Positions 9,720 through 34,721 are shown, counted from the first letter of the stretch. The stretch is 47,462 nt of DNA from Candidatus Woesearchaeota archaeon (GCA_964365855.1 CAYIRC010000003.1:2629-50090), one strand, 5' to 3'. The notes: a model not told the origin generated them from the sequence alone. A program made the numbers and translations.

Positions 9720-12700
9720 TATAACTTGTCAACCTCTTTTTTAAGTTCCTCAATTTCCTGTTGAACTCCTTCTGCATCTTTCCTGTCAACTTTTTTTATC
9801 CCTTTTAATCTGTTCTGCAGGTCACTGAATTTATTTTCAACATTTGCTGTATTCTTGCTCTTTTTCTTGTCTGCAATCGCTCTCTTTATTTTATCAAGCT
9901 CTTCAGATATTGATATTTTTACTTCGGGATTTTTCTTTATATATTCTGCTCTTTCTTTCTCAGCCTCGCTGATTGCTTTTTCAACTTCAGACTTTTCAAC
10001 TTTCTTTGCTACAAAATGCCTTACTCTCTTTCCAAGTTTCTTCCATGCATCATCAAACTTAGGAGTCAAAGACTCAAGATACATATCAGCCATCTGAAAC
10101 TGTCCGGACTTGATTTTTGATTTTGCAAGCTTCAGCTCAAGCTCAAGGTCAAGTACATCAACTTTCTCTTTCTTTAATTCCTCAACCTGATAATCCAAAT
10201 CCTCAACAATATCAAAATATTTCTCATAATTCTTCAATTCATTATTGCTTAATCTCCTAGTGCTGTGCAATAATGGCCTGAAAGCAATAAAATATGGCTT
10301 CCCTAAATTAAATTCTGCATTAACAACCATTCCAGTTCCAATCGGCTCTTTGACAACTGATTTCAAAATATCTTCTCCATATTTCATATTAACTCTTTCC
10401 AAATCACCCTCATACCTTGTTCCCATCTGCACTTCAGTTCCAATGTTTGCCTTAATTTCTCCAACAAAATCGCTTAATACTTGCGAGATTAATACCAATC
10501 CAATTCCCCACTTTCTGAATTCTCTTGCTCCTCTTTCAAGCTGAATAAAGCCCTGTCCCGTCCCACCGAACTTTGGCAATAATCTGTGAACTTCATCATA
10601 AACAATCAATGTCTTAAGCTCTTTATTTTCATCCGGCTCTGACTTGAATATCTGGTCAATTGTGCTTGCTACAACAATGTCAATTTCTTTAGGCGTTAAA
10701 TGGCTTATATTAAATACAGTAATTTCACCCGGCCTGTTCATATATTTCTTTATGTCAATCATTTCATATGGGTCATGTATTGTCTTTATGCTTCCATCAA
10801 ATGCCCTTGCTTCTCCTGTCTTCATGTCAAAGAAGCCATATCTCTTTAACATTCCAGAATCCTCGCACTTTCTCAAAAACCCGGTCCACTGTGCAGTTGG
10901 GTCAAATACAATAACGCTCTTCTTATTTACAAGCGCTGCCTCAATAATATCCTGCGCAGCAACTGTCTTTCCGCTTCCTGTTGAGCCTGCAACAAAAGTA
11001 TGCATCTGGAGTTTATTCAAATCTATAAATGCCCTTATGCCTGTTTCTGCAACTTTGCCGACAAATGCAGAATTAGGCCCTGCCTGCGGCAGCTTATTAA
11101 ATTCAACTTTCATCCTGAATCTTCGCTTCTGCCATTCAATATATCTCAAATAATAAAATGCACCAACTATCAGTCCAATTATAAGCAGTGCAACTAAATA
11201 TATCCAAAGTTCAATTCCAACTATGCGCATTTTGAAAATAGAGTAATTTACATTTACATATGCAATTGAACTTGCCTGCTGGTTTTCTTCTTCCAAGCTG
11301 GAGTAATAAGCAGTTCCTTTAAGAAGATATTTCCCAAGAGGGGTGTCACTAGGAACTTTAAATTCCTTAATCATGCTTGTTGATGTTTCAACTGCAAATG
11401 CTTCTTCTTGCCTCCCGACCAATGCGCCTGTTTCAGCATCAAGCATTTGCATGTCAAACTGAACATCAATTCTCTTTGTCTTTCCTAAGTTAAGCAAGTC
11501 TAACTGATATCTTAATACATCCCCAGGTGCAACCCTTTCCTGCAATGGTTGTATCTTAACATCAAGCAATTTTCCTTCAGGCGATAGAACTTTAATTGTA
11601 ACAGGAATTTCACCTTGCTTGTCTCCTGACTTGAATAAAATTGTCCCGTCATATTCAGTTGGCTTCTGGAACTTTGGTATTACAATCTTTACCAATACAT
11701 CTCTTATTTCATTTGGCTCGAGCTCAATTGTTGATGTTTCAAAAAAGATAAATGGTTGTATGTCTCCTGTTGCTTCAAGAGACATAATACTCTTTGAATT
11801 CAAGGTATTAACAAACTTCATCCTAAATGAAGATGAGTCTCCTGCAAATAGTTCCTTGTAAATAGAAGTTATCTCAACCTTGATTCCAGCTATATTTACA
11901 CTGCTCTTGATTAAGTTCTCTATCTTTGACAAATCCCCGCTTCCTAATCCTCCTCCACCGCCAGAGCTTGAAGCAGGCAGACTAACAGTAAGTGTTGGGC
12001 AGTCATTTGAACATGTCGATGTAGTTTCTCCATATGTTGTTTCACACAACCCATTTCCACACTTTTTTTCAGCAAGGAAATAAGAGCTAAATCCAGTTGA
12101 ATTTCCTGTAACCTGCTTTGTGTCTCTGTCAATTGAAGATACTATCGCGCTCCATCCACCATTGCATTTTCTCAATGAATAATTCCAGTCAGCGCATTTT
12201 ACAACCGCAAGCTGGCTTGCTTCATCATAACTATATCCTGTATAGTTAAATATAACATTAACAGTATTTGTGCTCAGATTAGTTGAATTCAAAGATATTC
12301 CAATAAATGGCTTGTACAGTGAGATTACTTCAGCAAGGTCATTGCCATTCATTTTATGCATATTTAATGAAATTCCTGAATTAGTAATATTTGTTAAATT
12401 AACATTTCTGACAATAACTTTATCTCCTGAAATCAGGGCATGCAGGTCATAATTCATCTTATTGACAGAAAGTGTTGTTCTCCCATCACTTCCGGTTATG
12501 TTATTAACTAAAACATTTGTCTTATTCAGTCTTGCTAAGCTTATATTTACCCCGGCAACAGGGTTATTATTGTAATCAATCATTATCAAAGCCCAGTTGT
12601 ACCTGTCATAAACTTCAAACCAGTCTTCAGTTGTATTTACATTTCCAGTTGTGTCATTTGCACTGTAATTCACAATGTATTCTCCAGCACTGTTTAAAAT

Positions 12701-15700
12701 AAATGAACTAAGATTATACAACTGTCCATTGCTTAATGTTAGAGTATAATTGCTGATAGTCCCATTTGGAGAAGTTACAGTTGCAATTACTTTATCAACA
12801 GCAACATTATCAGTTACATTTGCACTTAAGTTAATATAGCTTGATTTTTCTATGCTGTTTCTCGCAATGCTGTTAAATACAGGTGGTGTAACATCTCTGT
12901 AAGCAATTGAATTCGCAGATATTTTGCTTACTTCTCCGTAAACTGCATGAGTTAGTGTCAAGGTTAAATTATAAGTCATTCCATTTGTAATGCTAGGTGC
13001 AGTGCATGTTATATTCCACCATACATTTGAGCTGCTATAAACAGCACTTAAGCTGCTGCATGAACTTCCTCCAATTATTGCACTCCACACAGAATCGCTT
13101 GAAACAACATCCCCAGAGAATGTTGCATTGGCTAAAATTTGTATTGCACTTCCTGCAGTTGCGCCCGTTATCTGGTTTACTGATGTTGGATAAATTATAC
13201 TTATGTTCAAGTTTGTTGCAGTTAAATTAACACTAACATTAATTTGTACAGGAATTGCGCTTGAATTAGTCATTGTTATAATTGTAATATAGCTCCCATC
13301 AGCAGAAGGGCTTGTATAATTAACCATAAAGCTTCTGTTTGCATTAAGTGGAACTTCTATGCTTGACATATTTGGAACTACAATTGAGCTATTTGTGCTA
13401 TTCAATAAGAATGTAATATTTACATTTCCTGTATTGCTTATTGTAATTTCTCTAATTGTTCCTGATTGTCCGGCAGCCTTTGTTGAATTAATTAACAATG
13501 GGCTTGCGCTCCATGTCAGACTTTCAGGCACAACAATAGAAATATTAATTGTCCTTGATATATTCTGCTCTGTAACATTGATTATTCCAGAATAAGTTCC
13601 TGCAGATTTTCCAGAGCCCGCAGTTGAATTTATATTTACAATCCTCGAGCCATTTCTTGCAATTGCAAAATTGCTTTCATTAAATGTAATTGTAAATCCA
13701 GTGCATACCTCTCCTGAAACGCATACCAGATTCATCCCAGTCAAGTTATCATTTCCAGTATTATTTATTGCTAACGCTGACCAGTTGGAGCTTCCTGATA
13801 AGACACTTATATTAACAATAGAAGAATCAAAGCTTATGCTCTTATTGCTCAAAACATTCAAAGTTAAAGTTCTTGCAGTTGTTTCTATGCTTGTGTCTGC
13901 ATGCATATACCTTAAGCTTGCAGTTACACTATAAGTTCCAGGCCATGTCAATTTACTAACATTAATTTGTACAATCTTGCTCTGGCTGCTTCCTAAACCA
14001 ACAGTTCCAAAGCTGTAATTATTAAGGCTCATTATAATATCTATACTGCTATTGGCTAATGTTAAATTAACATCATATGCATTTATATTTCCTGTATTGT
14101 TTAAGCTGTAATTCACATAAACCATATAATTATTGGTTTTGTCAATTCTGGAAATATTCAAGTCAGATATATTTTCATTAAAGTTTATGCTCGTCGTCCC
14201 ATAAGCAGTAAAGTTATAAGCTATTGATGTATTCTTCTTTGCTCCTGTAGAATACACAGTTGCATAAGCATAATAAACACCAGATGTCAAAGGCGTGAAA
14301 TTACCTGTATAATTCAGCACTGTCTTATACTGCCCTCCAGTAAATTCACCTGCAGTTGAATTCAAAGGAATTGCAGCTATGATTGTGTCAATGCCTCCTC
14401 TTGTTACATTTATGCTGTTTCCAGTTAGATTTAATCCAATTGCATCTGTTGCCCTAAACTTTATTGTAACATTCTTGTTAACTTCTGCCTTTGTACCATA
14501 AGCACCATCAAGCAAGAACCATATTCCAGTTATTTGAGGAGGAGCAGGCACAATCCAAAACGCATCCTTAACATTTACTGATATAGGGGATGCACTCGCA
14601 TTTGCAATATTCATATTAACTACAACATTACTCAATTCCTGCTGGCTCCATCCATTTTGATAAAGAGTTATTGTTGTATTGCTTCCCTTTGTTGCATTTA
14701 TTAATGTAGGGTTGTAAACCAGTCCATTAACATTCTTATTTTCTTCAAATAATCCTGAATATAAAGTATAATCTTCCTCGCCAGTTAAAGTTCCTTGGGA
14801 ATAAGTAATTGCAAATGTCATATTAACATTTCCTGTATTCACAACACTGAAATTCCCGATTTCTCCAGCAGTGCTTAGCCCAAATGTTTTGTTATATGTT
14901 AAATTTGTGCTAGGTGTTAAATACCAACTTGTATTTGTAGGAACCTCAACCCTTATCGTTAAATTCTTTGACCCTGCGTTTGCAGAAACAACACTCACAT
15001 TTCCGGTATAATTTCCAGGGCTTGTATATAATGGCACACTTATATTTACACTTGCAGAAAAGCTTGTCCCTGCAATAAGCCCTGCATAAGTGCTTGGAGT
15101 GATATTAACCCATGAAAATGGAAGGGTCTCATTTACAAAAGATAATGTTATTTCAGTCACAGTGTCTGTTCCAATTGATTGCACTAAAAATGAAAAGTTC
15201 TGTGACCTCCCTTGCTGCACAGTCCAGTTAGAGCTATAAGCAGACAAAGCCATTGTTGCATTTAATGAAACATTAATATAACTTGTAGCTTGTATGTAAG
15301 TTGCTCCTCCTGCAATGCTTCCGTCATTATCACTCCAATTTCCTCTCCATGTAATATATAATGGGTCAACTCCACTTCCTCCTCCCCTTCCTCCTGTATT
15401 TCCATCAACAGTAATATTCATAATTGCATTGCAGCTTTGTCCAGGCCACACTTTACTGCACGGAGTTATTTGAGTAACATTCTTTACATCGCCTGACTTT
15501 GCAGCAGCCCATATATAAGCGCTGTTCATCGAAGCATTGCCTGTATTGTTTATAGTTACATTCCATAAATATGAATAATCAACGCCTGCCTGCAGGTCAG
15601 AAATAACTTTATTATTAGAGCCTATATTGCCTGATGTATTTCTCTGCTCTAAATAGTCTAAATAGCTGACAGACGCATTTCTATAATATCCTGTTTCATT

Positions 15701-18700
15701 ATTTGCAGTAATATTAATTGTATAATTTCCATAAGTTGGATTTGTTGCAACAGTCCAAGCATATGAATACGTGCACAAAACTCCGCCAGAGCACGTATAG
15801 TTTGTTGAATATCCTGCCTTATATATTGTAATTGTAACACTTCCATTTATCACTCCATTTGTATCAGTTCTTGTAAAATTAGGGTAAACTATATACTGGC
15901 TCAAGCTTCCAGTATAATTTTTTGTAACAGCATAAGGAATATCTGTCCTCGCCCATACAGTTATATTTGTTGAATTCGCTCCAACAATTCCCGTATTTGG
16001 ATTTTGCACAACACTAATTTCCAAAGGCAAAATTCCAAGCGCATCAGTTGGAATTGTTATATTATAGTCATACCCTCCGCTTGAATTAGTTGTTGCATTG
16101 AAATAAGAAATATTCACTGCATACAATATCGGAGTGACATTAAAATTTGTTGTCTCAAAAATTGCCTTGTACTGCAGATATCTCTTGCTATATGAAGTAA
16201 TGCTGTTGTCTAAATTATTTGTAAAATTACTGCTCCAGTCAGTCCATGTAACATTATCATCGCTCTCTCTCAACTGCACTTTAATTGTCTGCTCCGATGT
16301 ATTCTGGTCCCACTTCAAAACAGTATAAGTCATATTAGCCAAGTCAATTGCCCGTGAAACAAAATTCCCGCTTGAGTTATACTGCCATTGTGTATAGCTG
16401 ATATTATATTCACTAATTGGGTTTTCAGCGCCTGTTGCTGTATTTGCAACTGACTTCAGCATAACATAAAATTCATTTCTTCCATTAACAGGAGCACTTC
16501 CTCTTATCATCGCTCCTATTGATGTTGAAGAATTCATTAAATTCCATGAAGTTGCATTATAACTATACCATATAGATGTATTTCCATTACCGTCATTTCC
16601 AGTTGATGCAGTTAAAACATTTACAGATGCATTGTAAAATGCAGTTGGAGAAGTATACCTATAAGTTATATTTCCAATATTTGAAGTCATTGAGTCAACC
16701 TCAAATATTCTTCCATCCCCTGTTCCTGCATATCCAATACTGCTGTAATTATAAGCATCTGTAACATATTTATTCGTCGAGTAATTATCATTATAGCTCA
16801 TTCCACCGCTTGCACTTGTTAAATTCAATTTCACAACACTGCTTATATTCACGCTTGTTCCATTTCCAGCTGTAAAGCTTGTATCTCCAAGCATATCTGA
16901 AGAAACAGTCACCCCATTCAGCTTCATTACAAACCTATTATTCCCAATTGCCCAGCTATCGCTTCCATTCCATCTCTTAATCAATCCGCTAACAGGCACA
17001 ATGTCAGTTGTATTTACAATAAGTGATTGCGGAGTAATTTTTATTGACGTATTCTGCACCGAAAAGTTCGAATAAACATTCTCAAACAGCATCTGGCTGT
17101 TTGTAAGGTTTGCTTTGAATGTTACATTATAATCACCCAATCTTCCAGAAGTCGAGTATGTCGCATTCCATATTTCTACACTGCTATTTCTTAAAGTAAC
17201 ATTTGCATAAGCCCCATCAGGCCTTTTAATTTCAGCCCACACTTTGCTCAACGAGCTTCCTGTATAACTTGAAGCAGGAATATTTAATGTTAAATTAACA
17301 CTCTCATTATGATTTACATAAATCTTTCCAGTTGTTAATCCAATGCTTGAGCCATTTATCATGCCAGCTGAAACTAACTGCATAATAACATCATCTTGTA
17401 TGTTTGTCGTCAGATTCACAGATGTAATATTAATTGAATACCCGCTTGCAATTGTAGTTACATTGTATGGCGTCACATAAAAAGTTCCTGTTGTATTTTG
17501 CGTGTATTCTGTCAAATTCTGCCTTGTAATAAATCCATTCGCAGCAGTCAATTCGCTGAATGCAGTTGTCCCATTCACATACTGCCCCGTCACATTTGCT
17601 CCTGACAAAGCACTGCCCGCAGTGCTTGTCACATTCACATCAAGATAATACAAATTGTAAAGAGTAAAGTCCGCATCATTTATTGAAGTGTCTGATTTGT
17701 TGAATGTTACATTCAATAATTTAAGATAAGAGCCGGCTGTAAGAGCAGTATCAGCATAAATATCAACAGGATTTGAAGTGCTGTTATAAACATTTATTAT
17801 TCCATTCTCAATAGTTGCATTTACTTTGTTTGTATTAATATAAATCCCATAAGAGGTTCCTCCCCCGCTTGAATTTATATTCAAATTCCTGAACAAGTTA
17901 TCATAAGCATTTCCTGATATCCGCAATCCATAAGCAGCATCACCCCATGTATTTGCAACTGCTAATTTTTCAATATAATTATTCGAACTGCCGGAAATCC
18001 AAATCCCAGATACGCCTGCTCTTGAATTTGTGATTGTGCTGTTGATGATATTATTTGCATTTGAGCTGGAAGTTAAATAAATAGCGCCGCTAGGATCTGT
18101 GCTGTATGTACCTGATGTTGAGATATTGCTGTTTGTTATATTGGAGTTGGAACTTGAAACAAAATAGATTCCATGAACAGCATTTGCTCCAGAAGTACTA
18201 ATTGTATTATTATCTAATCTTGAATAATTGCTGCTTGATAAATAAATGCCATTACCATTGCTCTGTCCGCCAGATAACCCGCGGATTATATTATTGGTTA
18301 TGCTTGAACTGCTGCTGGAAATAAGCTGAACACCCTTATTTGGGTTTAAAATATTAATGCGGCTGTTATTTATAGTAGCATTGGGGCTTGAATACAAGTA
18401 AATAGCATTTCCTACTGATGTTGTTATATTGCTGTTTAAAATCCGTGAATTATTGCTGTAAAACATTGCAACACCATCTGCACTAAAGTTGCTGTTTTGA
18501 ACAGTTATATTATTGCTCCATGCAACAATAACCTGCCCGTAACTATTATCAATTCCTTCGAATACTAAATTATTCTGGGCAAATGTGTAATTTAGAGGCA
18601 ATCCTTCAACCAGATTAGTTGAGTCAAGGGTATTATTGTAGTGTTGAAAAACGCCAAAAATATAAAAAGCATTTTCCTGGCTATTATTAATCCTATTGCC

Positions 18701-21700
18701 GCTAAAGCTATTGTTAGAGCTATTAATCAGATAAACACCAAATATACTAGATGAAAGTGTTGAAATCACATTCTGCTGTATAATGCTGTTATTTGTATTT
18801 TCCTCATAGATTCCATACTGGCTGTCAGCACGAAGATTTAATGTATTATTTGCAACAAAAGCATTGTCTGAACTTAGAAGATAAATTGCTTTCTGAACAG
18901 AAAGATAACTGCTGCTGATATTTATAGTATTATTCTGAATAATGCCATTCAAAGCATTTCGATAATAAACAGCATGCCTATTTAGCGTATTAGCTGGCCC
19001 CAAGCTATCAATGATTCTGCAATTTCTGACATTAGTAAAATTCTTATTGGAATAAACACCATATCCAGGATTTCCTCCTAGATTTGATGTACTGTAATTA
19101 ACCATATAGCCCTGGCAATCCAGAGTCACAGAATTCGCAGTAACATTAAAGCAAGTCCCTGTTGTATTCACATCATTCTGAAGATAATAAACATGGTTTG
19201 TCCAGTTCAACTCCCCGCATGCTCCCATTCCTGCTGTTGTGCCTGTGCATGTTGTCTGATATATCACAGCATCAGGATTAAATATAGCATTATTAAAACT
19301 GCTTCCACAATCAGTATAATTCAGGGTTATCTGCCCCTCTGATGTCCCTGCCACCGACGCATTTATGCGAGATGCATTATAAATCCCACTCAAAGTTAAA
19401 AGCGGAGCTGTAATATTTATCCTCTGCCCCCAATCACTCCCTCCCGCACTTGTTCCATTATATCCAACAACACTAATGTTCCCCGATGAAGTTATAGAAG
19501 TTGAGGCGTTGATGTAGACAGTGCCGCCGGAACCTGGATAGTTACTTAAACCACCTTTATTATTGATTATTCCAGAAAAAGAAATATTTCCTGTTGAAAT
19601 TAAAGCTATTCTACCTCCGCCACCCGCATAATAATCATCAGAAATAAATCCCGAGGAAGCATTTAAAATTCCTGTTCCAGATATGTTATTTGCCTTAATC
19701 CAAATTGAACCGCCTGAACCTGAATTAAGAACATCAGAAGTACTTTTCATATCAATCAAACCATTAACAACAATTTTATCTAATGACTCTAATTTAATCG
19801 CAGAACCTGCGAAATTACCTGCATTGGAAGAACCCCCACCACTCCCCAAACTTACTGGCTCTGTTTCACTTCCGTAGGTATTCTTATTTGCATTTCTCCC
19901 TTTGCCTCCATATGTCCCTCCAGCATTATTATTTCCATTTCCAGGTCCAACATTCGCAGGAAACCCCAACCCAACTCCATCCAGCACACTTCCACTTGTA
20001 ATCGTAATATTACTGCTTGCATTAATCCACACGCCTCGTCCATCATCTGTCTTATTGTAACAAGTCACAGGATTTGTTGCATTGTAAAAACAATCTCCGT
20101 AAATTGTCATGTTGTATCCATTTGTATTAAAATTCCCAAGAACATTTGTAACATTTCCTTCGCCATAATTTCCCCCAAGTAATCCTATATTGCCTGTTAA
20201 GTTCCAATCACCAGGCCAGGTGTTATTTGTGAATGTTAAAGAACCAGATTTTCCAGAAAAAGGACTAGATTCAAATAAATTAATTTTACCTGTATAACTC
20301 ATTGAATTTCTATATTCTAGTCTGATTCTTCCTCCACCACCTGCCCACTCTGTTGTTGTATGTCCTCCAAATGCATTTAAAATTCCACTTCCAGAGATAT
20401 TATTTGCTTTTAACCAAATTGAACCGCCTGAGCCTGAATTACCATTAGTAACCCCACTCATATTCACACTTCCATCAATTATAACTGAATCTCCTTGTAA
20501 TTTGATAGCCGAACCAGCAGCTGAATTTCCTCCACCACTACCTAAACTCGTCGGTGCTGAAGCATTTCCATAGATAGACGGAACATACTGTTCACTACCA
20601 CCTTTGCCACCATAAGTTCCTCCTGTAGTAGAACCACCAGGTCCAATTAATTTAGTAAACCCCAGCCCCACTCCATTCATCTTCCCACTAACTCCAATAC
20701 TAATATTCCCACTCACGCTTCTCCATTCCTGCCCATGCCCATCTGCAGTTATATTTCTCATTCCTAAAGCAGTATCATTATACGCATCTCCATAAATCTT
20801 CATGGTTCCATTGCCAATGTAAATATTATTTGTAACATTCCAGAGCTGTGTCCCTGCCCAAGTTCCCCAAGTTCCCTGTGCAAATAAGGGCTGGAAATAA
20901 ATTGTTCCAGAACCATAGCTTTCATTAACAGTAAAGCTGTTCAGATTTTGAGGCATTGTGTTGTTTGTTATGTTCACACTAGCTAACCCAGTTGAATTAA
21001 ACACTAAACTATCGCCAGGAGCAGGAGCTCTTCCCAAACTCCAGCACGACGCATTATTGAAATATTGTGTTCCAGAAGTGCAGTTCCATAAATTAGTTCC
21101 AGGTGAACAACTCCCGCTCACATAAATTGCAGCAGGAGCAAATGTTGCTTTTGTTGTATCGCTTCCAAAACAATTGGTATAGCTTAGTGTAATGGTTCCA
21201 TTAACATTAGTATCGCTCATATTTAATTTTGAAGCATTATAAATCCCAGATAAAGTTAAAAGAGGTGAAGTTATATTAATTCTCTGCCCCCAATCTGCTC
21301 CAAGTGAGCCATTATATCCGACAACAGATATATTTCCTGAATGAGTAATTGATGTTGTGGCGTTGATGTAGACTGTGCCGCCGGAACCAGGACTGGTTAT
21401 ACTATATGGCCCATTACCGCCACGACTAGAAATTACTCCAGAAAACTCGATTGCCCCTGTTGAAATCAATGCAATTCTTCCGCCGCCGCCGCCAGTTTCT
21501 GACCCACTTCCACCAGTAACATTAATATTCGCAGTTCCAGAGATAGTGCTCGCCTTCAAAAGAACACTTCCCCCGGAACCACCAGCCCACTGGCTAGTAC
21601 CCCTCATATTAATTGTTCCATTTGCCACAATATTTCCAGAAGATTGGAGCACAACAGCAGAGCCGCCAAATTCTCCTGGCAAAGAAGTGCCAGAAAAACT

Positions 21701-24700
21701 ACCACTGCCTAAACTTACTGGCTCTGTTTCACTTCCATATGTAGCCGCTGAGCTACCTGTCCACAATCCTCCTTTGCCGCCATAGGAAGCGCCCCGACCA
21801 CCGCCACCAGGAGTACCTGGTCCAAGCTTAACGGGGAATCCTAAACCATCACCATCCAAAACACTGGTACTTGTAATAGTTATATTCCCACTCGTATTAA
21901 TCCAAACCCCTCGTCCGTCAGAAGTCTTGTTCCAGCATGTTGAAGGATTTGTTGCATTGTAAAAGCAATCTCCGTAGATTGTAATATTATAACCATTGGT
22001 ATTAAAGTTTCCTAAAACATTTGTAACATTAGTTCCATCTCCATCATAATCTCCTCCAAGCAATCCAATATTTCCTGTCAAACTCCAATCACCAGGCCAT
22101 GTGTTGTTTGTGAAAGTGAGGGTCCCGTGTTTAGCAGCACCAGCTCCCGAGACAGAGACTGTTCCAGTCACATTCATTGAACTTCCATATTCCAGTCTTA
22201 TTCTTCCGCCGCCACCTGACAATGATGTGGGACTATTTCCATCTGCTTTAATGGCTCCTGTAATTGCTATATTATCTGCTTTTAGCCAAATAGAGCCACC
22301 AGCCCCTCCATAGTCGTTTGAATTACGTATAGCAGAGAAATTAAAAATACCTTTTATATCTATAAGTTCATTTGCAAAAAGTTTAATAGCAGAGCCCCCT
22401 TCATTATCTTGGCCGCCGCTTCCTAAACTTGTAGGAGCACTTGCATTTCCATAAGGTTGCTTTGTAGTAGACCCAGCTGCCCCAACTCCACCATGACTTG
22501 CACCAAAGGCATGAGCTCCAGGTCCAATTAATTTAGTAAACCCCAGCCCCACCCCATCAATCTTCCCACTCACCCCAACACTAATATTCCCTTCCACACT
22601 TCTCCACTCCTGCCCATGCCCATCTGCAGTAATATTCTTCATTCCTAAAGCAGAATCATTATAAGCATCGCCGTATATCTTCATCGTTCCGTTATTGATA
22701 ATAATATTATTTGTAACATTCCATAATTGAGTTCCTTGCCAGCTTCCCCATGTTCCTTGTGCAAATAAGGGCTGGAAATAAATTGTTCCAGTATAACTTT
22801 CATTAACAGTAAACGAATTAAGGTTTTGAGGCATTGTGTTGTTTGTTATATTAACACTAGCTAACCCAGTTGAATTAAACACTAAACTATCGCCAGGAGC
22901 AGGAGCTCTTCCCAAACTCCAGCACGACGCATTATTGAAATATTGTGTTCCAGTTGTGCAATTCCATAAATTAATTCCAGGTGAACAACTTCCACTCACA
23001 TAAATTGCAGCAGGATTAAATGTTGCTTTTGTTGTATCGCTTCCAAAACAATTTGTATAGCTTAATGTTATTGTTCCATTTACATTCGTATCGCTCATAT
23101 TTAATTTTGAAGCATTATAAATCCCGCTCAAAATCATCAATGGCGCAGTAATATTAATTCTCTGCCCCCAATCAGCCCCATTAGAACCATTTTTTCCAGC
23201 AACAGAAATATTTCCTGAACTTGTGATTGAAGTTGTTGCATTTATGAAAACAGTGCCGCCGGAACCTGATTGTGAAGAATAACCTGTATTAATTCCTCCG
23301 AGATTATTAATTATTCCAGTAAAACTTATTGTTCCTGTTGAGGTTAATGCTATTCTTCCACCTGCACCAGCATATCTAGAAGCAGCATTGCCATTTGACC
23401 CTCCGGACGCATTCAATGTTCCTGAGCCAGATATATTATTTGCCTTTAACCAGATGCTTCCACCTGCACCACGATGTTCACTTCCTGAAGGGTCATTCAT
23501 AACTAAAACTCCATTTAAGAAAAGGGTTCCTAAAGATTCAAGTTTGATAGCAGAACCGCCAGCAATATCACCGCCTCCACTCCCTAAACTTACTGGCTCT
23601 GTTTCGCTTCCATAAGTTGATTTTGTATTTAAAGCACCTCTTCCGCCATATGTTCCTCCTACTCCTGAACCAGCACCAGGTCCAACATTAGCTGGAAATC
23701 CCAACAACTGCCCATTCAAAACACTCCCGCTTGTGATTGTTATATTCCCACTTGCATTAATCCAAACACCTCTGCCGTCGCTTGTCTTATTATAGCAAAG
23801 TAAAGGATTATTTTTATTGCTATAACAATCTCCTTGAATAGATATATTATAATTATTTGTATTAAAATTCCCTAAAACATTTGTAACATTTCCATCACCA
23901 AAATTCCCGCCAAGCAACCTAATATTTCCTGTTAAATTCCAGTCACTGGGCCAGGTATTGTTTGTGAATGTTAACGAACCTAAACCTTGACCTCCATTAA
24001 TTGATATTACACCGTTAAACAACATTGTACTACCATACTCCAGCCTTATTCTTCCGCCACTTCCAACATATACTGTTCCACCACCATTTGAAATTAATGC
24101 GCCATTTCCAGAGATGTTATTTGCCTTTAGCCAGATGCTTCCTCCAGCCCCAGTTCTATCAGTTGTTCCCGATCCAGAAACATTTATAGACCCCTTAGTC
24201 TCAATTAAATCAGAAGCATGTAATTTAATTCCGCTTCCCCCGGCTGTATTTAAGCCCCCACTGCCCAAGCTTGTCGGAGCAGAAGCATTTCCATATTGGT
24301 CAGCGCCACCACCATACCTGCCTCCATCATATGCGTTTGAACCTCCGGGTCCAGTTGACTCCAGAAATCCCAACCCCACCCCATCCAACTGCGCCCAACT
24401 TCCAATTGTTATATTTCCGCCAACTGACCTCCATTCCTGCCCATGCCCATCTGAAGTAATATTCCTCATTCCTAAAGCAGTATCATTATAAGCATCTCCA
24501 TAAATCTTCATTGTCCCATTATTAATTATAATATTATTAGTCACATTCCAAAGCTGTGTCCCACTCCATGAGCCCCAAGTTCCCTGTGCAAATAAGGGCT
24601 GGAAATAAATTGTTCCAGTATAACTTTCATTAACAGTAAACGAATTAAGGTTTTGAGGCATTGTGTTGTTTGTTATATTAACACTAGCTAACCCAGTTGA

Positions 24701-26596
24701 ATTAAATACAACATCATCATATGCTTGGGGAACTCTTCCAAGTGTCCAGCAAGAAGTATTTGTCCAGTATTGTGTGCCAGAAGTGCAATTCCAAACATTT
24801 GTCAATGCACTTGCATTCGGCAATCCAATATTATATAAAAGCAAAATCTCACTCGCATTCAAGGCGCGATTGTAAATTGCGAGTTCGTCCATTAGGCCGT
24901 TGAACCAGGTATCACTACTTGTATAAATATCAGATACAATATATATTGGCTGGTTGTTGCTTAAATCTCCTGTAGTAGTATCACTAACATTATTCTTTAA
25001 GATACCATCAACATAAATATACAATAAATCTGTACCAGTATCACGGACTCCAACCAAATGATGCCATTGATTCGCGCTGATAGCATCTGGACTTTCAGCC
25101 GTAGGATTATTAGTACCATCATAAATAACCAAACTAGGTATTAAAGTATTACTTAACCTTATCTCAAAAGGATAGGGATTGCCTGATAGCGGTTTTGATA
25201 TTAATCTTATTGTTGTTCCTTTTTGATTTGAATTAGGATTTACCCACATTGAAATTGAATAATTACTTATATTGGTAAAATTTAATGATGCACTATGACT
25301 AATTTGTATCTTATCATCAACACCATCAAACTCCACAGCCCCGAGCTGTTTCCCCGATGAACTCCAAACAGGATTGAAATTGAAATTTGTAAGAGTTCCA
25401 TTATTCTGCGGAACAGATGGGCTCCAATCCCGAGCAACAGTTGTTGTTAATCCCGACTCATTAAACGGCATGTCAAGAACAAGGCCATTTGTGTTGTCAT
25501 CACACCTCATCTTGTATCCTGGCGTGTTGTTCGCAGCAGTTATGTTTGCTGCATTCACCGAGCAGTTCAAGATAAGGACTTCGTCAATTGTGCCATTGAA
25601 AAGTTGAGAAGTAGCAGAATTATACCTTCGCCCTATATTTAAATTTCTTGAATTATTAAAATCAGAACCTGTTGCAGTGCCAGAATTAGTTCCCTCGCTA
25701 ATACCATTAATATATAATAATGCATTTGTAGAATTATAAACAGATACAACATGATACCATATTCCTGTTTGAGTAACAGTAGTTCCAAGCATGCCTCTTA
25801 CTCCGCCAGAAGTTCTAGTATAAAACTCAATTTTACCAGTAGTGCCTGTATATCTTAATTCCCAACCAGGTTCCAAATTAACATCTCCTTTTGTTGCAAT
25901 CATTGCATAATTCGGAAAAGAGTCTGCTTTAACCCAAGCTGAAATTGTAATACTCCCAGTTATATTCAAGCTGGCATTATTTCCCAAATTAACATAATCA
26001 TCCACTCCATCAAACCTCAAGGCATTCCCTTGCTTGCTGTTTGCAGTCCATGGACTTCCATAACCAGTCCCGTTATTGTTGTTTCCTGAAAAATCATAAA
26101 CCCATGTATCATTCTCGCCTTTTGTTGTATCGCGGTTAAAATGATACAAAGCAACCAGCCCAGTTTCAGCCGCAGGATTAATTTCAGGGTCAATAATATG
26201 GTCAAAAACAAATGTGCCATCCAGCATTTTCAAGTCAAAGGTGCTTTGGCTGTAGTTGGTGTTATTTGAACCTACAGGGCCAGTCAAGTTTGTCAAATAT
26301 ATTTTGTAATACGCCCCACCACTCGCATAATCCCCAATCCCGCTAAACTCTGCAATCTTCGTAGTTCCATTCAATTCATACACCCCAATTTTCCCACTGC
26401 TCAAAATCGCATCAGAGGAGTAATTTACCAGCCACCCATAACCGGAGCTCGCAAGCTCGCTCTCAAGCTGCGAAAGTTCAGATTGCAAATCCTGCTGGCC
26501 CTGTGCAAAGGCAAACAGGGCATATGCTATGAGCATTAAAGAGAATAGAATCACTCCTCCGGCAATTCGATTTTTTATTGCTCTTTTATTTTTCAT
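9719..26596 (-). CDS. Giant (5625 aa) surface protein fused to a cytoplasmic HerA/FtsK/VirB4-like (DUF87-type) ATPase
   Basis: Signal peptide, two LamG domains (FDGVDD..WxHxV..IDEV/MDEL), three ~610-630 aa Gly-rich modules, beta-helix, Ig-like arrays, CGNGLCE..C..DC, TM, GSTGSGKT, VYDEVH, ISQ, coiled coil. Confidence 0.9.
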   Translation of the reverse strand: MKNKRAIKNRIAGGVILFSLMLIAYALFAFAQGQQDLQSELSQLESELASSGYGWLVNYSSDAILSSGKIGVYELNGTTKIAEFSGIGDYASGGAYYKIYLTNLTGPVGSNNTNYSQSTFDLKMLDGTFVFDHIIDPEINPAAETGLVALYHFNRDTTKGENDTWVYDFSGNNNNGTGYGSPWTANSKQGNALRFDGVDDYVNLGNNASLNITGSITISAWVKADSFPNYAMIATKGDVNLEPGWELRYTGTTGKIEFYTRTSGGVRGMLGTTVTQTGIWYHVVSVYNSTNALLYINGISEGTNSGTATGSDFNNSRNLNIGRRYNSATSQLFNGTIDEVLILNCSVNAANITAANNTPGYKMRCDDNTNGLVLDMPFNESGLTTTVARDWSPSVPQNNGTLTNFNFNPVWSSSGKQLGAVEFDGVDDKIQISHSASLNFTNISNYSISMWVNPNSNQKGTTIRLISKPLSGNPYPFEIRLSNTLIPSLVIYDGTNNPTAESPDAISANQWHHLVGVRDTGTDLLYIYVDGILKNNVSDTTTGDLSNNQPIYIVSDIYTSSDTWFNGLMDELAIYNRALNASEILLLYNIGLPNASALTNVWNCTSGTQYWTNTSCWTLGRVPQAYDDVVFNSTGLASVNITNNTMPQNLNSFTVNESYTGTIYFQPLFAQGTWGSWSGTQLWNVTNNIIINNGTMKIYGDAYNDTALGMRNITSDGHGQEWRSVGGNITIGSWAQLDGVGLGFLESTGPGGSNAYDGGRYGGGADQYGNASAPTSLGSGGLNTAGGSGIKLHASDLIETKGSINVSGSGTTDRTGAGGSIWLKANNISGNGALISNGGGTVYVGSGGRIRLEYGSTMLFNGVISINGGQGLGSLTFTNNTWPSDWNLTGNIRLLGGNFGDGNVTNVLGNFNTNNYNISIQGDCYSNKNNPLLCYNKTSDGRGVWINASGNITITSGSVLNGQLLGFPANVGPGAGSGVGGTYGGRGALNTKSTYGSETEPVSLGSGGGDIAGGSAIKLESLGTLFLNGVLVMNDPSGSEHRGAGGSIWLKANNISGSGTLNASGGSNGNAASRYAGAGGRIALTSTGTISFTGIINNLGGINTGYSSQSGSGGTVFINATTSITSSGNISVAGKNGSNGADWGQRINITAPLMILSGIYNASKLNMSDTNVNGTITLSYTNCFGSDTTKATFNPAAIYVSGSCSPGINLWNCTTGTQYFNNASCWSLGRAPAPGDSLVFNSTGLASVNITNNTMPQNLNSFTVNESYTGTIYFQPLFAQGTWGSWQGTQLWNVTNNIIINNGTMKIYGDAYNDSALGMKNITADGHGQEWRSVEGNISVGVSGKIDGVGLGFTKLIGPGAHAFGASHGGVGAAGSTTKQPYGNASAPTSLGSGGQDNEGGSAIKLFANELIDIKGIFNFSAIRNSNDYGGAGGSIWLKADNIAITGAIKADGNSPTSLSGGGGRIRLEYGSSMNVTGTVSVSGAGAAKHGTLTFTNNTWPGDWSLTGNIGLLGGDYDGDGTNVTNVLGNFNTNGYNITIYGDCFYNATNPSTCWNKTSDGRGVWINTSGNITITSTSVLDGDGLGFPVKLGPGTPGGGGRGASYGGKGGLWTGSSAATYGSETEPVSLGSGSFSGTSLPGEFGGSAVVLQSSGNIVANGTINMRGTSQWAGGSGGSVLLKASTISGTANINVTGGSGSETGGGGGRIALISTGAIEFSGVISSRGGNGPYSITSPGSGGTVYINATTSITHSGNISVVGYNGSLGADWGQRINITSPLLTLSGIYNASKLNMSDTNVNGTITLSYTNCFGSDTTKATFAPAAIYVSGSCSPGTNLWNCTSGTQYFNNASCWSLGRAPAPGDSLVFNSTGLASVNITNNTMPQNLNSFTVNESYGSGTIYFQPLFAQGTWGTWAGTQLWNVTNNIYIGNGTMKIYGDAYNDTALGMRNITADGHGQEWRSVSGNISIGVSGKMNGVGLGFTKLIGPGGSTTGGTYGGKGGSEQYVPSIYGNASAPTSLGSGGGNSAAGSAIKLQGDSVIIDGSVNMSGVTNGNSGSGGSIWLKANNISGSGILNAFGGHTTTEWAGGGGRIRLEYRNSMSYTGKINLFESSPFSGKSGSLTFTNNTWPGDWNLTGNIGLLGGNYGEGNVTNVLGNFNTNGYNMTIYGDCFYNATNPVTCYNKTDDGRGVWINASSNITITSGSVLDGVGLGFPANVGPGNGNNNAGGTYGGKGRNANKNTYGSETEPVSLGSGGGSSNAGNFAGSAIKLESLDKIVVNGLIDMKSTSDVLNSGSGGSIWIKANNISGTGILNASSGFISDDYYAGGGGRIALISTGNISFSGIINNKGGLSNYPGSGGTVYINASTSITSSGNISVVGYNGTSAGGSDWGQRINITAPLLTLSGIYNASRINASVAGTSEGQITLNYTDCGSSFNNAIFNPDAVIYQTTCTGTTAGMGACGELNWTNHVYYLQNDVNTTGTCFNVTANSVTLDCQGYMVNYSTSNLGGNPGYGVYSNKNFTNVRNCRIIDSLGPANTLNRHAVYYRNALNGIIQNNTINISSSYLSVQKAIYLLSSDNAFVANNTLNLRADSQYGIYEENTNNSIIQQNVISTLSSSIFGVYLINSSNNSFSGNRINNSQENAFYIFGVFQHYNNTLDSTNLVEGLPLNYTFAQNNLVFEGIDNSYGQVIVAWSNNITVQNSNFSADGVAMFYSNNSRILNSNITTSVGNAIYLYSSPNATINNSRINILNPNKGVQLISSSSSSITNNIIRGLSGGQSNGNGIYLSSSNYSRLDNNTISTSGANAVHGIYFVSSSNSNITNSNISTSGTYSTDPSGAIYLTSSSNANNIINSTITNSRAGVSGIWISGSSNNYIEKLAVANTWGDAAYGLRISGNAYDNLFRNLNINSSGGGTSYGIYINTNKVNATIENGIINVYNSTSNPVDIYADTALTAGSYLKLLNVTFNKSDTSINDADFTLYNLYYLDVNVTSTAGSALSGANVTGQYVNGTTAFSELTAANGFITRQNLTEYTQNTTGTFYVTPYNVTTIASGYSINITSVNLTTNIQDDVIMQLVSAGMINGSSIGLTTGKIYVNHNESVNLTLNIPASSYTGSSLSKVWAEIKRPDGAYANVTLRNSSVEIWNATYSTSGRLGDYNVTFKANLTNSQMLFENVYSNFSVQNTSIKITPQSLIVNTTDIVPVSGLIKRWNGSDSWAIGNNRFVMKLNGVTVSSDMLGDTSFTAGNGTSVNISSVVKLNLTSASGGMSYNDNYSTNKYVTDAYNYSSIGYAGTGDGRIFEVDSMTSNIGNITYRYTSPTAFYNASVNVLTASTGNDGNGNTSIWYSYNATSWNLMNSSTSIGAMIRGSAPVNGRNEFYVMLKSVANTATGAENPISEYNISYTQWQYNSSGNFVSRAIDLANMTYTVLKWDQNTSEQTIKVQLRESDDNVTWTDWSSNFTNNLDNSITSYSKRYLQYKAIFETTNFNVTPILYAVNISYFNATTNSSGGYDYNITIPTDALGILPLEISVVQNPNTGIVGANSTNITVWARTDIPYAVTKNYTGSLSQYIVYPNFTRTDTNGVINGSVTITIYKAGYSTNYTCSGGVLCTYSYAWTVATNPTYGNYTINITANNETGYYRNASVSYLDYLEQRNTSGNIGSNNKVISDLQAGVDYSYLWNVTINNTGNASMNSAYIWAAAKSGDVKNVTQITPCSKVWPGQSCNAIMNITVDGNTGGRGGGSGVDPLYITWRGNWSDNDGSIAGGATYIQATSYINVSLNATMALSAYSSNWTVQQGRSQNFSFLVQSIGTDTVTEITLSFVNETLPFSWVNITPSTYAGLIAGTSFSASVNISVPLYTSPGNYTGNVSVVSANAGSKNLTIRVEVPTNTSWYLTPSTNLTYNKTFGLSTAGEIGNFSVVNTGNVNMTFAITYSQGTLTGEEDYTLYSGLFEENKNVNGLVYNPTLINATKGSNTTITLYQNGWSQQELSNVVVNMNIANASASPISVNVKDAFWIVPAPPQITGIWFLLDGAYGTKAEVNKNVTIKFRATDAIGLNLTGNSINVTRGGIDTIIAAIPLNSTAGEFTGGQYKTVLNYTGNFTPLTSGVYYAYATVYSTGAKKNTSIAYNFTAYGTTSINFNENISDLNISRIDKTNNYMVYVNYSLNNTGNINAYDVNLTLANSSIDIIMSLNNYSFGTVGLGSSQSKIVQINVSKLTWPGTYSVTASLRYMHADTSIETTARTLTLNVLSNKSISFDSSIVNISVLSGSSNWSALAINNTGNDNLTGMNLVCVSGEVCTGFTITFNESNFAIARNGSRIVNINSTAGSGKSAGTYSGIINVTEQNISRTINISIVVPESLTWSASPLLINSTKAAGQSGTIREITISNTGNVNITFLLNSTNSSIVVPNMSSIEVPLNANRSFMVNYTSPSADGSYITIITMTNSSAIPVQINVSVNLTATNLNISIIYPTSVNQITGATAGSAIQILANATFSGDVVSSDSVWSAIIGGSSCSSLSAVYSSSNVWWNITCTAPSITNGMTYNLTLTLTHAVYGEVSKISANSIAYRDVTPPVFNSIARNSIEKSSYINLSANVTDNVAVDKVIATVTSPNGTISNYTLTLSNGQLYNLSSFILNSAGEYIVNYSANDTTGNVNTTEDWFEVYDRYNWALIMIDYNNNPVAGVNISLARLNKTNVLVNNITGSDGRTTLSVNKMNYDLHALISGDKVIVRNVNLTNITNSGISLNMHKMNGNDLAEVISLYKPFIGISLNSTNLSTNTVNVIFNYTGYSYDEASQLAVVKCADWNYSLRKCNGGWSAIVSSIDRDTKQVTGNSTGFSSYFLAEKKCGNGLCETTYGETTSTCSNDCPTLTVSLPASSSGGGGGLGSGDLSKIENLIKSSVNIAGIKVEITSIYKELFAGDSSSFRMKFVNTLNSKSIMSLEATGDIQPFIFFETSTIELEPNEIRDVLVKIVIPKFQKPTEYDGTILFKSGDKQGEIPVTIKVLSPEGKLLDVKIQPLQERVAPGDVLRYQLDLLNLGKTKRIDVQFDMQMLDAETGALVGRQEEAFAVETSTSMIKEFKVPSDTPLGKYLLKGTAYYSSLEEENQQASSIAYVNVNYSIFKMRIVGIELWIYLVALLIIGLIVGAFYYLRYIEWQKRRFRMKVEFNKLPQAGPNSAFVGKVAETGIRAFIDLNKLQMHTFVAGSTGSGKTVAAQDIIEAALVNKKSVIVFDPTAQWTGFLRKCEDSGMLKRYGFFDMKTGEARAFDGSIKTIHDPYEMIDIKKYMNRPGEITVFNISHLTPKEIDIVVASTIDQIFKSEPDENKELKTLIVYDEVHRLLPKFGGTGQGFIQLERGAREFRKWGIGLVLISQVLSDFVGEIKANIGTEVQMGTRYEGDLERVNMKYGEDILKSVVKEPIGTGMVVNAEFNLGKPYFIAFRPLLHSTRRLSNNELKNYEKYFDIVEDLDYQVEELKKEKVDVLDLELELKLAKSKIKSGQFQMADMYLESLTPKFDDAWKKLGKRVRHFVAKKVEKSEVEKAISEAEKERAEYIKKNPEVKISISEELDKIKRAIADKKKSKNTANVENKFSDLQNRLKGIKKVDRKDAEGVQQEIEELKKEVDKL
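19250..24803 (-). repeat. Three tandem ~1.85-kb intragenic modules
   Basis: Modules start at WNCT(S/T)G near 24800, 22975 and 21097; identical blocks 24585-24706=22758-22879 and 22854-22953=20976-21075. Confidence 0.9.
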
Positions 26597-27144
26597 TCTC
26601 TTAATATCTCCTTAACTTTATTTACAAAATCAGCAGTTTTACTGCGCATATCCTCAGCTAAGGAAATATCAAAACTCTCATCAACCCGATAGCTCGCTTT
26701 CTCCCTTATTTCCTTAGAGCTTGCAATAAACTCAATTTCCTCGCATTTTACATTAAAATTATCAATAACAATCTGCATATCTTCTTTATTCAATAAATTC
26801 CTTTTATGATAATAAATATAAGTCAATGCGGAAATTGAAGCAAGATGGTTTTTAGACTCAAACCCCGCTTTGGAAATTAAAGCCAGAACAGAATGGTAAA
26901 TTGCATAATAATAAATAACAACGCACCAGTCATAAAATGATTTTCCCCTAAGTTTCTTCTTAATAGAATACTTATGCTCTGATAAAACAAAATTCCCAAA
27001 TTCAAGATTATTTAGAGATTTATTTAAATGCTTTTTAAATAAAGCAGGGTTTGTCTTTTTAATTAGCTGCCTTTTAATAAAAAAATTAAAAACTTCCTTG
27101 CAATACTCCCTATTTTCAATTAATTTATCAATTTCAATTTTCAT
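26593..27144 (-). CDS. HEPN-domain protein (probable start 27144 after GGAGGTGA; ORF track starts 27159)
   Basis: YYAIYHSVLAL...SKNH...REKASY; follows an MNT gene; stop overlaps the giant gene's ATG (ATGA). Confidence 0.85.
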   Translation of the reverse strand: MKIEIDKLIENREYCKEVFNFFIKRQLIKKTNPALFKKHLNKSLNNLEFGNFVLSEHKYSIKKKLRGKSFYDWCVVIYYYAIYHSVLALISKAGFESKNHLASISALTYIYYHKRNLLNKEDMQIVIDNFNVKCEEIEFIASSKEIREKASYRVDESFDISLAEDMRSKTADFVNKVKEILRE

Positions 27145-27195
27145 TTTATGAAGATTCACCTCCTAAAGCGAATATTTGAAAAGTTTGAAAAATTT

Positions 27196-27789
27196 TCATT
27201 CCAAAAACCTCCATAACAATCTGTAATAATATTCAGTTCCCAAAACAATAATTACATTCTGCCTTATTTCCCTTGAAAAGTCATGCTCTTTGTTTAGAAA
27301 ATTTTTCTCAAAATTCTTATAATTAATATAAACAGGGCTTATTTTTGTATTAGTCCTCATGCTGATTCTTTTTGCAGTATTCTCAATGTCTTTCTCATCT
27401 TCAACTTTTTGAAAAACAAGCAATACATCAATATCTGACTCTTTAGTGAAATTTCCTGCCGCATATGAGCCAAAGATTAATGCAATTAAGGGTTTGGTTT
27501 CAAGCTCTTCCAAAAATTCAATTGCTGCACCTTGAATTTTAACAGGCAATAAGATAAATTTCTCAGTATTAACCTGCTTGAGATAAGCAATGCTCTTTTC
27601 GCTCTCTCTTAGCATAAACTTAACTAAATTTGCCTCTTTTTCTTTTCTTACAACTTTTTCCTTGCTTAAAATTTCCAAAAATCTCTTTACATTAGGCAGT
27701 CCAGAATTCACTAATCTGGAAATTTCCCTTAGGTGAACTCCTTTTTTATTCCTTTCCAATTCTGCGATTATTTTTAGTTTAGTTTCCAT
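27196..27789 (-). CDS. wHTH + minimal nucleotidyltransferase (MNT antitoxin)
   Basis: HLREISR wHTH; FGSYAAG....SDIDVL. Confidence 0.9.
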   Translation of the reverse strand: METKLKIIAELERNKKGVHLREISRLVNSGLPNVKRFLEILSKEKVVRKEKEANLVKFMLRESEKSIAYLKQVNTEKFILLPVKIQGAAIEFLEELETKPLIALIFGSYAAGNFTKESDIDVLLVFQKVEDEKDIENTAKRISMRTNTKISPVYINYKNFEKNFLNKEHDFSREIRQNVIIVLGTEYYYRLLWRFLE

Positions 27790-27805
27790 TTTGTTGTTAA
27801 TAATT

Positions 27806-27834
27806 TATTATCATTTGATAATATTATATTATCA
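27806..27834. promoter_or_regulatory. Putative operator of the MNT-HEPN pair
   Basis: TATTATCA-tt-TGATAATA-tta-TATTATCA alternating half-sites next to a TATA-like box. Confidence 0.5.
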
Positions 27835-27861
27835 TTACTTATAAATTTAATTATTTGAAAA

Positions 27862-34721: not shown

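Follow-up and report, generated by a model that had tools for sequence, protein, structure and literature searches.

How can the gene for a giant surface protein be interrupted inside a single domain, by a series of unrelated genes, and leave a long intact reading frame on either side? This question is raised by a 47,462-nt stretch of DNA from Candidatus Woesearchaeota archaeon (GCA_964365855.1 CAYIRC010000003.1:2629-50090), here called the window, in which positions are counted from the first letter. The host is a Pacearchaeota/Woesearchaeota-type (DPANN) archaeon. Between 26.2 and 34.8 kb, the genes lie on the minus strand, with the exception of an opposite-strand VapBC pair. In this study, we closely examined an 897-aa protein and a 5625-aa giant protein that enclose an array of smaller genes and show that they are two products of one fissioned giant surface-protein gene (here named N-half and C-half). 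The N-half ends in a short tail (T) and the C-half begins with a head (H), and both elements recur within the array, whose order is T1, AAA_14-DUF4143, H3, MNT-HEPN, a fossil running from H2 to T2, MNT-HEPN, and H1-giant.

Taken as a whole, the locus is probably a fissioned surface-protein gene whose halves re-dock via T and H, with the gap as a cargo slot filled by recombination. The two halves would be exported separately, the N-half via its N-terminal anchor and the C-half via H, and, once outside the cell, would complement each other's strands to restore the domain, with the T helix lying on the H helix as a clamp. Because the gene would still work as two chains, the gap would offer a safe, well-transcribed place, in which the repeated H and T segments may let cassettes pile up through homologous recombination and unequal crossing-over.

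One lectin-like domain on two chains

The N-half (32028..34721, minus strand, 897 aa) consists of a basic N-terminal motif, a hydrophobic anchor (aa 57-75), the first strands of a lectin-like domain (..EYVRVTF..DITVFAK), and the tail T1. The C-half (9719..26596, minus strand, 5625 aa) starts with H1 and continues with the rest of the split domain (to ~26183), Laminin_G_3, repeats, a membrane segment (aa 5120-5138), and a HerA/DUF87-like ATPase. The end of the N-half and the start of the giant both match one 1995-aa frame on another contig of the same genome (C1:9945-15929). The two matches abut with a slight overlap, and this paralogue reads unbroken through ..EYVRVSFE..DITIFARGNNSEIEVYTENG..KIYLSNL..FDLKVLGNIELDYIFDP. 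Furthermore, the last 104 aa of the N-half have matches in 103 of the 201 genomes of the order, mostly inside frames of 1000-7000 aa, and most of these matches stop at query residue ~70-90, i.e., they do not include T.

A homologue alignment brought together 18 unsplit and 15 split versions of the domain. The AlphaFold2 (AF2) model of the unsplit domain is a single beta-sandwich, in which the 10-residue blocks of residues 41-150 have predicted local distance difference test (pLDDT) values of 78-96, and the break falls between the neighboring strands E89-96 and E99-105. The best Foldseek matches were lectin or carbohydrate-binding jelly-rolls, including the lectinolysin lectin domain (E 2.9e-4), CBM6, CBM32, and APC10, at template modeling (TM) scores of 0.34-0.5, which amounts to a weak fold likeness; no Pfam family corresponds to the domain. 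Contiguous homologues span both halves, the break lies inside one domain, and the halves are intact, adjacent, and co-oriented, as they likewise are at 20 of 28 loci examined. This is the pattern of a fissioned gene.

Co-folding of the C-terminal 135 aa of the N-half (alignment of 15 rows) with residues 32-141 of the giant (13 rows) gave ipSAE interface scores of 0.78, 0.74, and 0.80 in three runs, compared to 0.00 for the best of three controls. The partners had pLDDT values of 78-80, and at least 80% of the contacts were common to the runs. The tightest modeled contacts pair EYVRVTF with TFDLKM and DITVF with YKIY, by which the sandwich is rebuilt; the predicted interface also takes in T residues 113-131 and H residues 34-61, with helix-like spacing, and the T and H helices touch. 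As a model, this shows complementarity of the halves, not binding in the cell.

In the hydrophobicity profiles, the N-half has its one anchor and the giant has a signal-type segment (aa 9-27) besides the C-terminal one. The initial annotation had proposed that the 897-aa protein ends, and the giant starts, with halves of one normally contiguous domain, and had suggested a search for unsplit homologues as a check. The own-genome paralogue, the 18 aligned unsplit relatives, and the position of the break between two strands bear this out. Of its further proposal, re-docking through the T and H helices, the complex model recovers the joining of the halves with both helices in the interface; binding in the cell and a clamp function of the helices are what we infer from it.

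Two further observations concern the ends of the proteins. The basic N-terminal motif (..K.GRL.GPY.YESYR..G.VKKRY..) that precedes the anchor is common to the N-half (34620-34721) and the C1 paralogue (G000:C1 ~15816-15914), with 58% identity over 33 aa, and is also present in the genome G063. At the C terminus of the giant (9719-11300), a cytoplasmic P-loop ATPase of the HerA/DUF87/FtsK type (E 8.4e-11) comes after the membrane segment, an order of domains that ties the surface giant to an internal motor-like domain.

Tails, heads, and the cargo between them

The tail at the end of split N-halves is ~35 aa long, with the consensus ..INGxEVPCxIYxKKxRIDEIRRxL followed directly by the stop codon. 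The head at the start of split C-halves (~65 aa) comprises a signal-type hydrophobic stretch, a helix (LQxELxxLxxxL), and the motif GYxWLxNYS. In the window, T1 (35 aa plus stop codon, 32028..32135, minus strand) forms a short strand and an amphipathic helix and lies inside one copy of a 134-nt direct repeat (32026-32159), to which the second copy (27860-27993) is 89% identical. H1, the head of the giant (26387..26596, minus strand), has a signal sequence (aa 9-27), a helix, and the motif GYGWLVNYS. A DNA repeat of 166 nt with 80% identity links the H1 region to that of H2 (26281-26446 versus 28923-29088). The third copy, H3, is a lone head of 79 aa (30341..30580, minus strand) with a hydrophobic signal, a helix, and GYGWL, and ends right after the H motif. 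Protein identity to the first 133 aa of the giant is 50% for H2 and 31% for the more distant H3.

Apart from VapBC, the cargo genes of the window are on the minus strand. Next to T1, an AAA_14 + DUF4143 ATPase of 429 aa is encoded (30636..31925; Pfam E 3.8e-38 and 1.8e-19), for which PADLOC gives the candidate system PDC-S01 (E 1.8e-108). Two copies of a 22-nt direct repeat upstream of this gene (31926-31947 and 31959-31980, minus strand) reach its ATG and may be an operator; they differ by one base, and the motif is found nowhere else in the genome (0 expected by shuffling). H3 is followed by an MNT-like nucleotidyltransferase (29704..30330, 208 aa, with GSx10DxD) and its HEPN-domain partner (29244..29720, 158 aa), and the fossil by a second MNT-like nucleotidyltransferase (27196..27789, 197 aa; Pfam, PADLOC) and a second HEPN-domain partner (26593..27159, 188 aa). 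Both nucleotidyltransferases contain the GSx9-13DxD motif and match Pfam NTP_transf_2/Polbeta next to a HEPN gene. The stop codon of the first HEPN gene overlaps the ATG of head H2 and that of the second the ATG of the giant (ATGA at 29244-29247 and 26593-26596, respectively). With 33% identity over 89 aa for one member and 23% over 154 aa for the other, the two MNT-HEPN pairs are distant paralogues, so the heads are conserved as more than part of a recent whole-unit duplication. No Pfam family was matched by the 897-aa, 79-aa, and 461-aa open reading frames (ORFs).

Profile searches revealed that T and H recur together. An H profile built from six heads had matches in 19 of 401 family genomes at the counting threshold of E ≤ 1e-5; at E ≤ 0.01, it had 115 matches, mostly weak ones to the hydrophobic part. 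A T-only profile (18 rows) likewise matched in 19 of the 401 genomes at E ≤ 1e-5, and 18 genomes contain both elements, with only T in G299 and only H in G244. In G313 and G337, T lies on a different contig from H, and these T copies were outside the profile-building set. The homology of T and that of H is clear at all loci, and both are conserved over at least 18 genera and 80 protein clusters, and the split architecture was found in loci from 19 other genomes. The survey of 28 loci left out G046, G188, G079, and G033, which have long-frame matches to query residue 100 or beyond, as well as G244, G299, and the duplicates L088, L091, and L094. At 20 of the 28, a T-ending protein is followed by a downstream H on the same strand; five of the remaining eight end at or near a contig border, and the other three are L076, L087, and L097 (no ORF matched).

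A library of 1.84 billion proteins (representatives) yielded 1858 proteins matching the end of the N-half at E ≤ 0.001. Among the best 150 of these, 85 match through T, and 80 of the 85 stop no more than 7 aa past it, so T is a terminal feature of a sizeable family. The other 65 run on for a median of 1234 aa, and no single chain with T followed by H was found among the best 150. We also considered T as a duplicated strand of the domain, given its likeness by eye to strand 3 (EVY.EKDG), the last strand (NGxVEFDYIV), and a helix (SDIYEEVK), and dropped this idea after a profile-profile comparison of T with the unsplit domain (hhalign, E 0.059, probability 0.9%). As for H, an H-like motif (..ELEQLESELVSEGYEWLINY..) was seen in the middle of a continuous frame of another genome (L032, G139:C9 ~1501-1581), after a Gly/Ser-rich linker rather than at a protein start, so the helix-GYxWL unit may exist outside the split context.

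What lies between T and H varies from genome to genome and is of toxin-antitoxin or defense-island type. The distance from T to the full-length H-protein is ~180 nt with no gene in G451, 5.4 kb in the window, and more than 6.4 kb in L093. The order in G161 is N-half-T, MNT, HEPN, and H-1324 aa, and that in G063 is N-half-T, NYN, H, MNT, HEPN, H, NYN, and H. When the 47 ORFs that separate T from H at the first 20 loci were clustered, they gave Schlafen/AlbA_2 + HATPase_c_4 + winged-helix proteins (13 ORFs), nucleotidyltransferases (8), HEPN proteins (7), NYN proteins (5), two pairs, one of them Bro-N (4), and singletons (10). At further loci, the cargo also includes Thg1-like, FGE-sulfatase-fold, bAvd, and reverse-transcriptase genes. 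Beyond the ATPase of the window, PADLOC assigned the nucleotidyltransferases to PDC-M05A and Bro-N to PDC-S13, all of these being family labels. Apart from the opposite-strand VapBC of the window, the cargo genes share one orientation, and their starts frequently overlap the stop of the gene before.

The Pfam scans of the cargo recovered no recombinase family, several cargo ORFs being without a family or unscanned. Neither a transposase nor terminal inverted repeats were seen in any array, and the window showed no attC-type repeats; the arrays accordingly do not have the makeup of integrons. At the end of the longest array, that of L093 with four heads and two H..T mini-genes, the region 16641-20152 looks like a diversity-generating retroelement, with FGE-sulfatase-fold (E 6.7e-10), bAvd (E 3e-22), and reverse-transcriptase (E 6.4e-24) genes and an NYN gene in between.

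The way in which arrays grow is indicated by their repeats. Lone heads (66-103 aa) are all cut at the same point, just after GYxWLxNYS, and the short stretch that follows belongs to the next cassette. The tail-MNT-HEPN units of G063 and G275 each match a unit of L093 with 73% DNA identity (995 and 1272 nt) while the flanks differ, so that this cassette sits after a head in three different genomes; near-identical heads within one array are present in G353, G063, and L093. Judged from these sequence patterns, the arrays would fit a mechanism of homologous recombination or unequal crossing-over in which [tail-cargo] units are inserted behind a head and the head is duplicated.

The initial annotation had listed the minus-strand genes of the array, a direct repeat at T (there ~120 bp), three occurrences of H, and the ATGA overlap of both HEPN stops with the next head, all of which were recovered at their positions. 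It had also suggested a profile search for T and H in relatives, and the joint recurrence with variable cargo in between is what this search returned. The integrase-free cargo slot that it envisaged stands insofar as variable T-H cargo recurs and no recombinase was recognized among the classified cargo ORFs; it is on the latter ground that entry by recombination appears plausible.

The 461-aa ORF and the inteins of the domain

The 461-aa ORF in the middle of the array (27862..29247, minus strand) is made up of H2 and three C-half strands (to 28918), the N-terminal part of an intein (28917-28702), antisense VapC and VapB, an N-half-like scrap (..VFKPFGLDYTLFAK..; ~28030-27970), and T2 (27969-27862). 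Its middle part is an antisense reading of VapBC, because the toxin-antitoxin genes are on the plus strand, namely a VapB-like ORF of 75 aa (28067..28294, no Pfam match at E ≤ 0.01) and a PIN_2 (VapC-like) protein (28301..28705, Pfam E 2.9e-18). A PIN-domain protein preceded by a small antitoxin gene is the expected layout of a VapBC pair, and the PIN_2 gene with the 75-aa ORF ahead of it has this layout. A role of the 461-aa ORF as a selected overlapping gene was rejected, since the antisense frame stays open in 20-28% of 5000 synonymous VapB/VapC shuffles; the corresponding frame in G451 is open in 26% of such shuffles.

Sequence identity between the intein fragment of the window (28702-28917) and the beginning of a full element in G313 is 60%. 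Block A (CYDNETEIL..) and block B (..SPEHKVY) are present, while blocks F and G and the terminal Asn with its nucleophile are absent from the window fragment and present in G451, G313, and G126 (..IYDVDV.., ..WSGN/S). The element has weak matches to Pfam Intein_splicing and the Spl DnaX mini-intein (7cfv); the window fragment scored 14.4 bits (E 0.034) and the best relative 25.8 bits (E 1e-5), both below the Intein_splicing cutoff of 35.8 bits. No other copies of the fragment were found by tblastn in the host's own genome (85% complete).

These inteins form a family that occupies one fixed site of the domain, after YKIYLTxLxE, and that starts with C-Y-D-[NS]-E-T and ends in ..WSGN/S. Intact copies lie in a split host gene (L074, G451:C23, 2047-3576), in a C-half (L081, G313:C2, 2479-3888, the full element mentioned above), and in two unsplit host genes (L017, G139:C8, 1-1410; L023, G126:C9, 64-1383), and the window has a remnant with its opposite-strand VapBC (28067-28917). 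In three of the four intact copies (G126, G139, and G451) and in the window remnant, an opposite-strand toxin-antitoxin pair lies inside the intein, and the host frame is open across the pair. The pairs consist of PIN_2 (E 2.5e-18 and 4.3e-17) with a small partner or of DUF433 (E 6e-20) with DUF5615 (E 2.8e-11), and the VapC of the window is 45% identical to the PIN protein inside the G139:C8 intein.

Inteins commonly carry homing endonucleases, and it is the position where the endonuclease would normally be that the antisense pair occupies. The element of the 461-aa ORF and its full relatives resemble endonuclease inteins in their initial Cys and S/TxxH block, and the relatives also in ..YDVDV.. 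and the end ..SGN/S. They differ in that the host is an exported surface protein and in that, in the window remnant and all but one of the intact copies, an opposite-strand toxin-antitoxin pair fills the endonuclease slot. We found no description of inteins with antisense toxin-antitoxin pairs in the portions of the literature on inteins, toxin-antitoxin systems, PIN domains, and Woesearchaeota/Pacearchaeota that were accessible.

The 461-aa ORF is best read as the fossil of a second C-half allele, containing an intein with antisense VapBC, and of a second N-half, left after a deletion that spared the addiction module. An earlier interpretation had taken it as a chimera of H, intein, toxin-antitoxin, and T; instead of a working chimera, it is a chance-open remnant with VapBC on the opposite strand and only the N-terminal part of an intein.

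Competing readings and biological meaning

Several points weigh against two re-docking chains with a cargo slot between them. In its calibration, the docking tool reached the mark attained here for 58 of 80 solved complexes and for 2 of 110 mismatched pairs, figures that hold just roughly in this case because custom alignments were used. Since the partners are halves of one fold, the pass may also reflect the model's knowledge of contiguous beta-sandwiches. The hhalign comparison given above found nothing in the unsplit domain that T significantly resembles. At L087, the T-protein is followed by a protein without H, and at L076 (G353:C76, 256-3166), a lone 95-aa head, itself followed by a nucleotidyltransferase and a 157-aa ORF, is immediately preceded by genes for a rhomboid protease and for TFIIE-alpha on a contig that lacks T; many arrays lie on short contigs that end within the cargo. 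The Rx4-6H RNase motif had no match in either HEPN protein of the window (29244-29720 and 26593-27159), so "toxin-antitoxin" is to be taken as a family label, not as a shown activity. The genome is a fragmented bin of 36 contigs, and the assembly was checked against contigs from three runs of a single study; these runs probably represent the source sample, with a depth of 4-9x, and none of the contigs spans the whole array.

The same contigs nevertheless address the concern that the repeats are a misassembly of strains. Without differences, short independent contigs (X1/X2) bridge T2-VapBC-intein-H2 (27914-29138), the junction of T1 with the AAA gene (31741-32753), the region around H3 (30244-31013), and H1/HEPN (26120-26681). 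Loose contig ends, at which the sequence continues differently, cluster at 32010, 32162, 29199-29243, and 30556, near the T1, H2, and H3 borders; other genomes or strains in the sample may hold these repeats beside other neighbors.

A further difficulty comes from phylogeny. When the N-side domain was used to build a tree (33 rows and 98 columns, most forks weak), the split genes did not group together as a single clade. The best topology requires nine changes, well-supported branches force at least two, and constraining the split genes to one clade costs 65.5 log-likelihood units (approximately unbiased [AU] test, p 0.00107). One old fission with vertical descent is therefore insufficient by itself. 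The split G161 and the unsplit G149 are sisters (98/97) and share near-identical sequence immediately ahead of the break and once more at GTQDVFDLRVVNGSVEFD beyond it, whereas the segment between differs. Given the scattered split state and this sister pair, one of three things has happened: the T..H segment passes from gene to gene through recombination in its conserved flanks, it is precisely lost, or the history is blurred by gene conversion among paralogues.

These data lend themselves to an account in which T-cargo-H is a mobile gene-splitting module that enters the lectin-like domain of different giant genes, a stop codon with a docking tail and a start codon with signal and docking head offsetting the damage, as an analogue of an intron or intein acting by protein complementation. 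The scatter of split among unsplit genes, the sister pair, and the homology of T and H across all loci speak for such a module. No recombinase, transposase, or terminal inverted repeats were seen in the arrays, a cargo-free version exists (G451), the tree is small with mostly weak forks, and gene conversion among the many paralogous giant genes or a precise loss of the module would give the same pattern; we regard this account as the main rival, yet as rather unlikely. Slightly less doubtful, though still only a tentative possibility, is the broader proposal of a self-spreading T-cargo-H module whose host protein would be rebuilt from two chains outside the cell, whose gap carries defense or addiction genes, and whose domain also hosts inteins with antisense toxin-antitoxin pairs.

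Alternatively, heads, tails, and H..T genes could be silent cassettes of a variation system that swaps half partners or the expressed cargo, like the orphan cassettes of polymorphic-toxin or pilin loci. Two to five heads do occur in seven loci of six genomes (window, L027, L070/L071, L075, L083, L093, and L096), and H..T mini-genes recur (159 and 145 aa in G275; 182 and 167 aa with identical 3' parts in L093). The fossil of the window moreover implies that the N-half and the giant once had other partner halves. The repeated parts H and T are, however, the conserved ones and not the variable ones, and the 145-aa mini-protein of G275 folds poorly in silico when modeled alone (mean pLDDT 61, predicted TM score 0.27), and we consider this explanation improbable.

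It is more improbable still that the gene is simply broken by inserted selfish toxin-antitoxin cassettes, with both ORFs decaying. The addiction- or defense-type cargo and the array debris, i.e., H3 and the chance-open 461-aa ORF, would suit such a history. Against it stand the long frames kept open in a genome of 34% G+C, the breadth of T/H conservation, a head that supplies start codon and signal sequence exactly where they are needed, the start/stop overlaps that tie the genes into one operon, and the absence of frameshifts or stops from the halves of the 20 loci. An assembly artefact in which strains or paralogues were joined via the H and T repeats, as the fragmented low-depth bin and the loose ends near repeat borders (32010, 32162, and 29243) might suggest, is hardly credible with repeats of just 80-89% identity, another assembler's contigs crossing each local junction, and the same architecture in the loci of the 19 other genomes. 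The fissioned gene with re-docking halves and a cargo slot thus remains our preferred reading.

Fissioned protein genes whose halves reassemble noncovalently are known from Nanoarchaeum equitans and other DPANN archaea. As in those cases, one ancestral gene is now present as two ORFs with contiguous homologues, and function is presumably restored by association of two chains. The present case differs in that the cut lies inside a single extracellular beta-sandwich, both ends carry conserved add-ons that include a new signal sequence, and the halves stay adjacent, with the gap as a recurrent cargo site containing extra heads and tails. Split inteins act by trans-splicing, as in the split DNA polymerase of N. 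equitans, and share with this locus a split host gene and complementary peptide add-ons at the break. In contrast to split inteins, T has no starting Cys/Ser, H has no terminal Asn with nucleophile, and neither Hint motifs nor a Pfam match are present, so joining would be noncovalent; a true intein does occur in the split domain, one loop beyond the break.

In integron arrays and defense-island hot spots, a fixed slot gathers diverse small genes of defense or toxin-antitoxin systems, all pointing the same way behind a promoter that belongs to the site. The T-H gap is likewise one fixed slot with co-oriented genes of these kinds, and it differs from integrons in that no integrase or attC-like repeats were seen and in that the slot lies inside a protein-coding gene. 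A likeness also exists to the orphan cassettes of polymorphic toxin, contact-dependent inhibition (CDI), and Rhs loci, where tandem cassettes each keep a short conserved piece of the main gene and thereby allow integrase-free exchange by homologous recombination (PMC3482391). In the present arrays, what is conserved is either the 5' head of the gene that follows or the 3' tail of the gene that precedes, and the variable part consists of whole unrelated genes instead of a toxin tip with an immunity gene. In the accessible portions of the literature on DPANN surface proteins, gene fission, toxin-antitoxin systems, and inteins, no description of this split-gene and cargo arrangement was found.

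If this reading is true, the locus encodes a natural two-chain giant archaeal surface protein with dedicated peptides at the break and would be a model for tolerated gene fission outside the cell; T and H would be a possible source of small natural docking pairs. The scattered split state, together with the re-partnering implied by the fossil, suggests that N- and C-halves of these surface proteins can be re-assorted. The gap would further represent a hot spot of a new kind, situated within a working gene, in which defense and addiction genes gather without a recognized recombinase, and would bear on how very small DPANN genomes gain and retain accessory genes.

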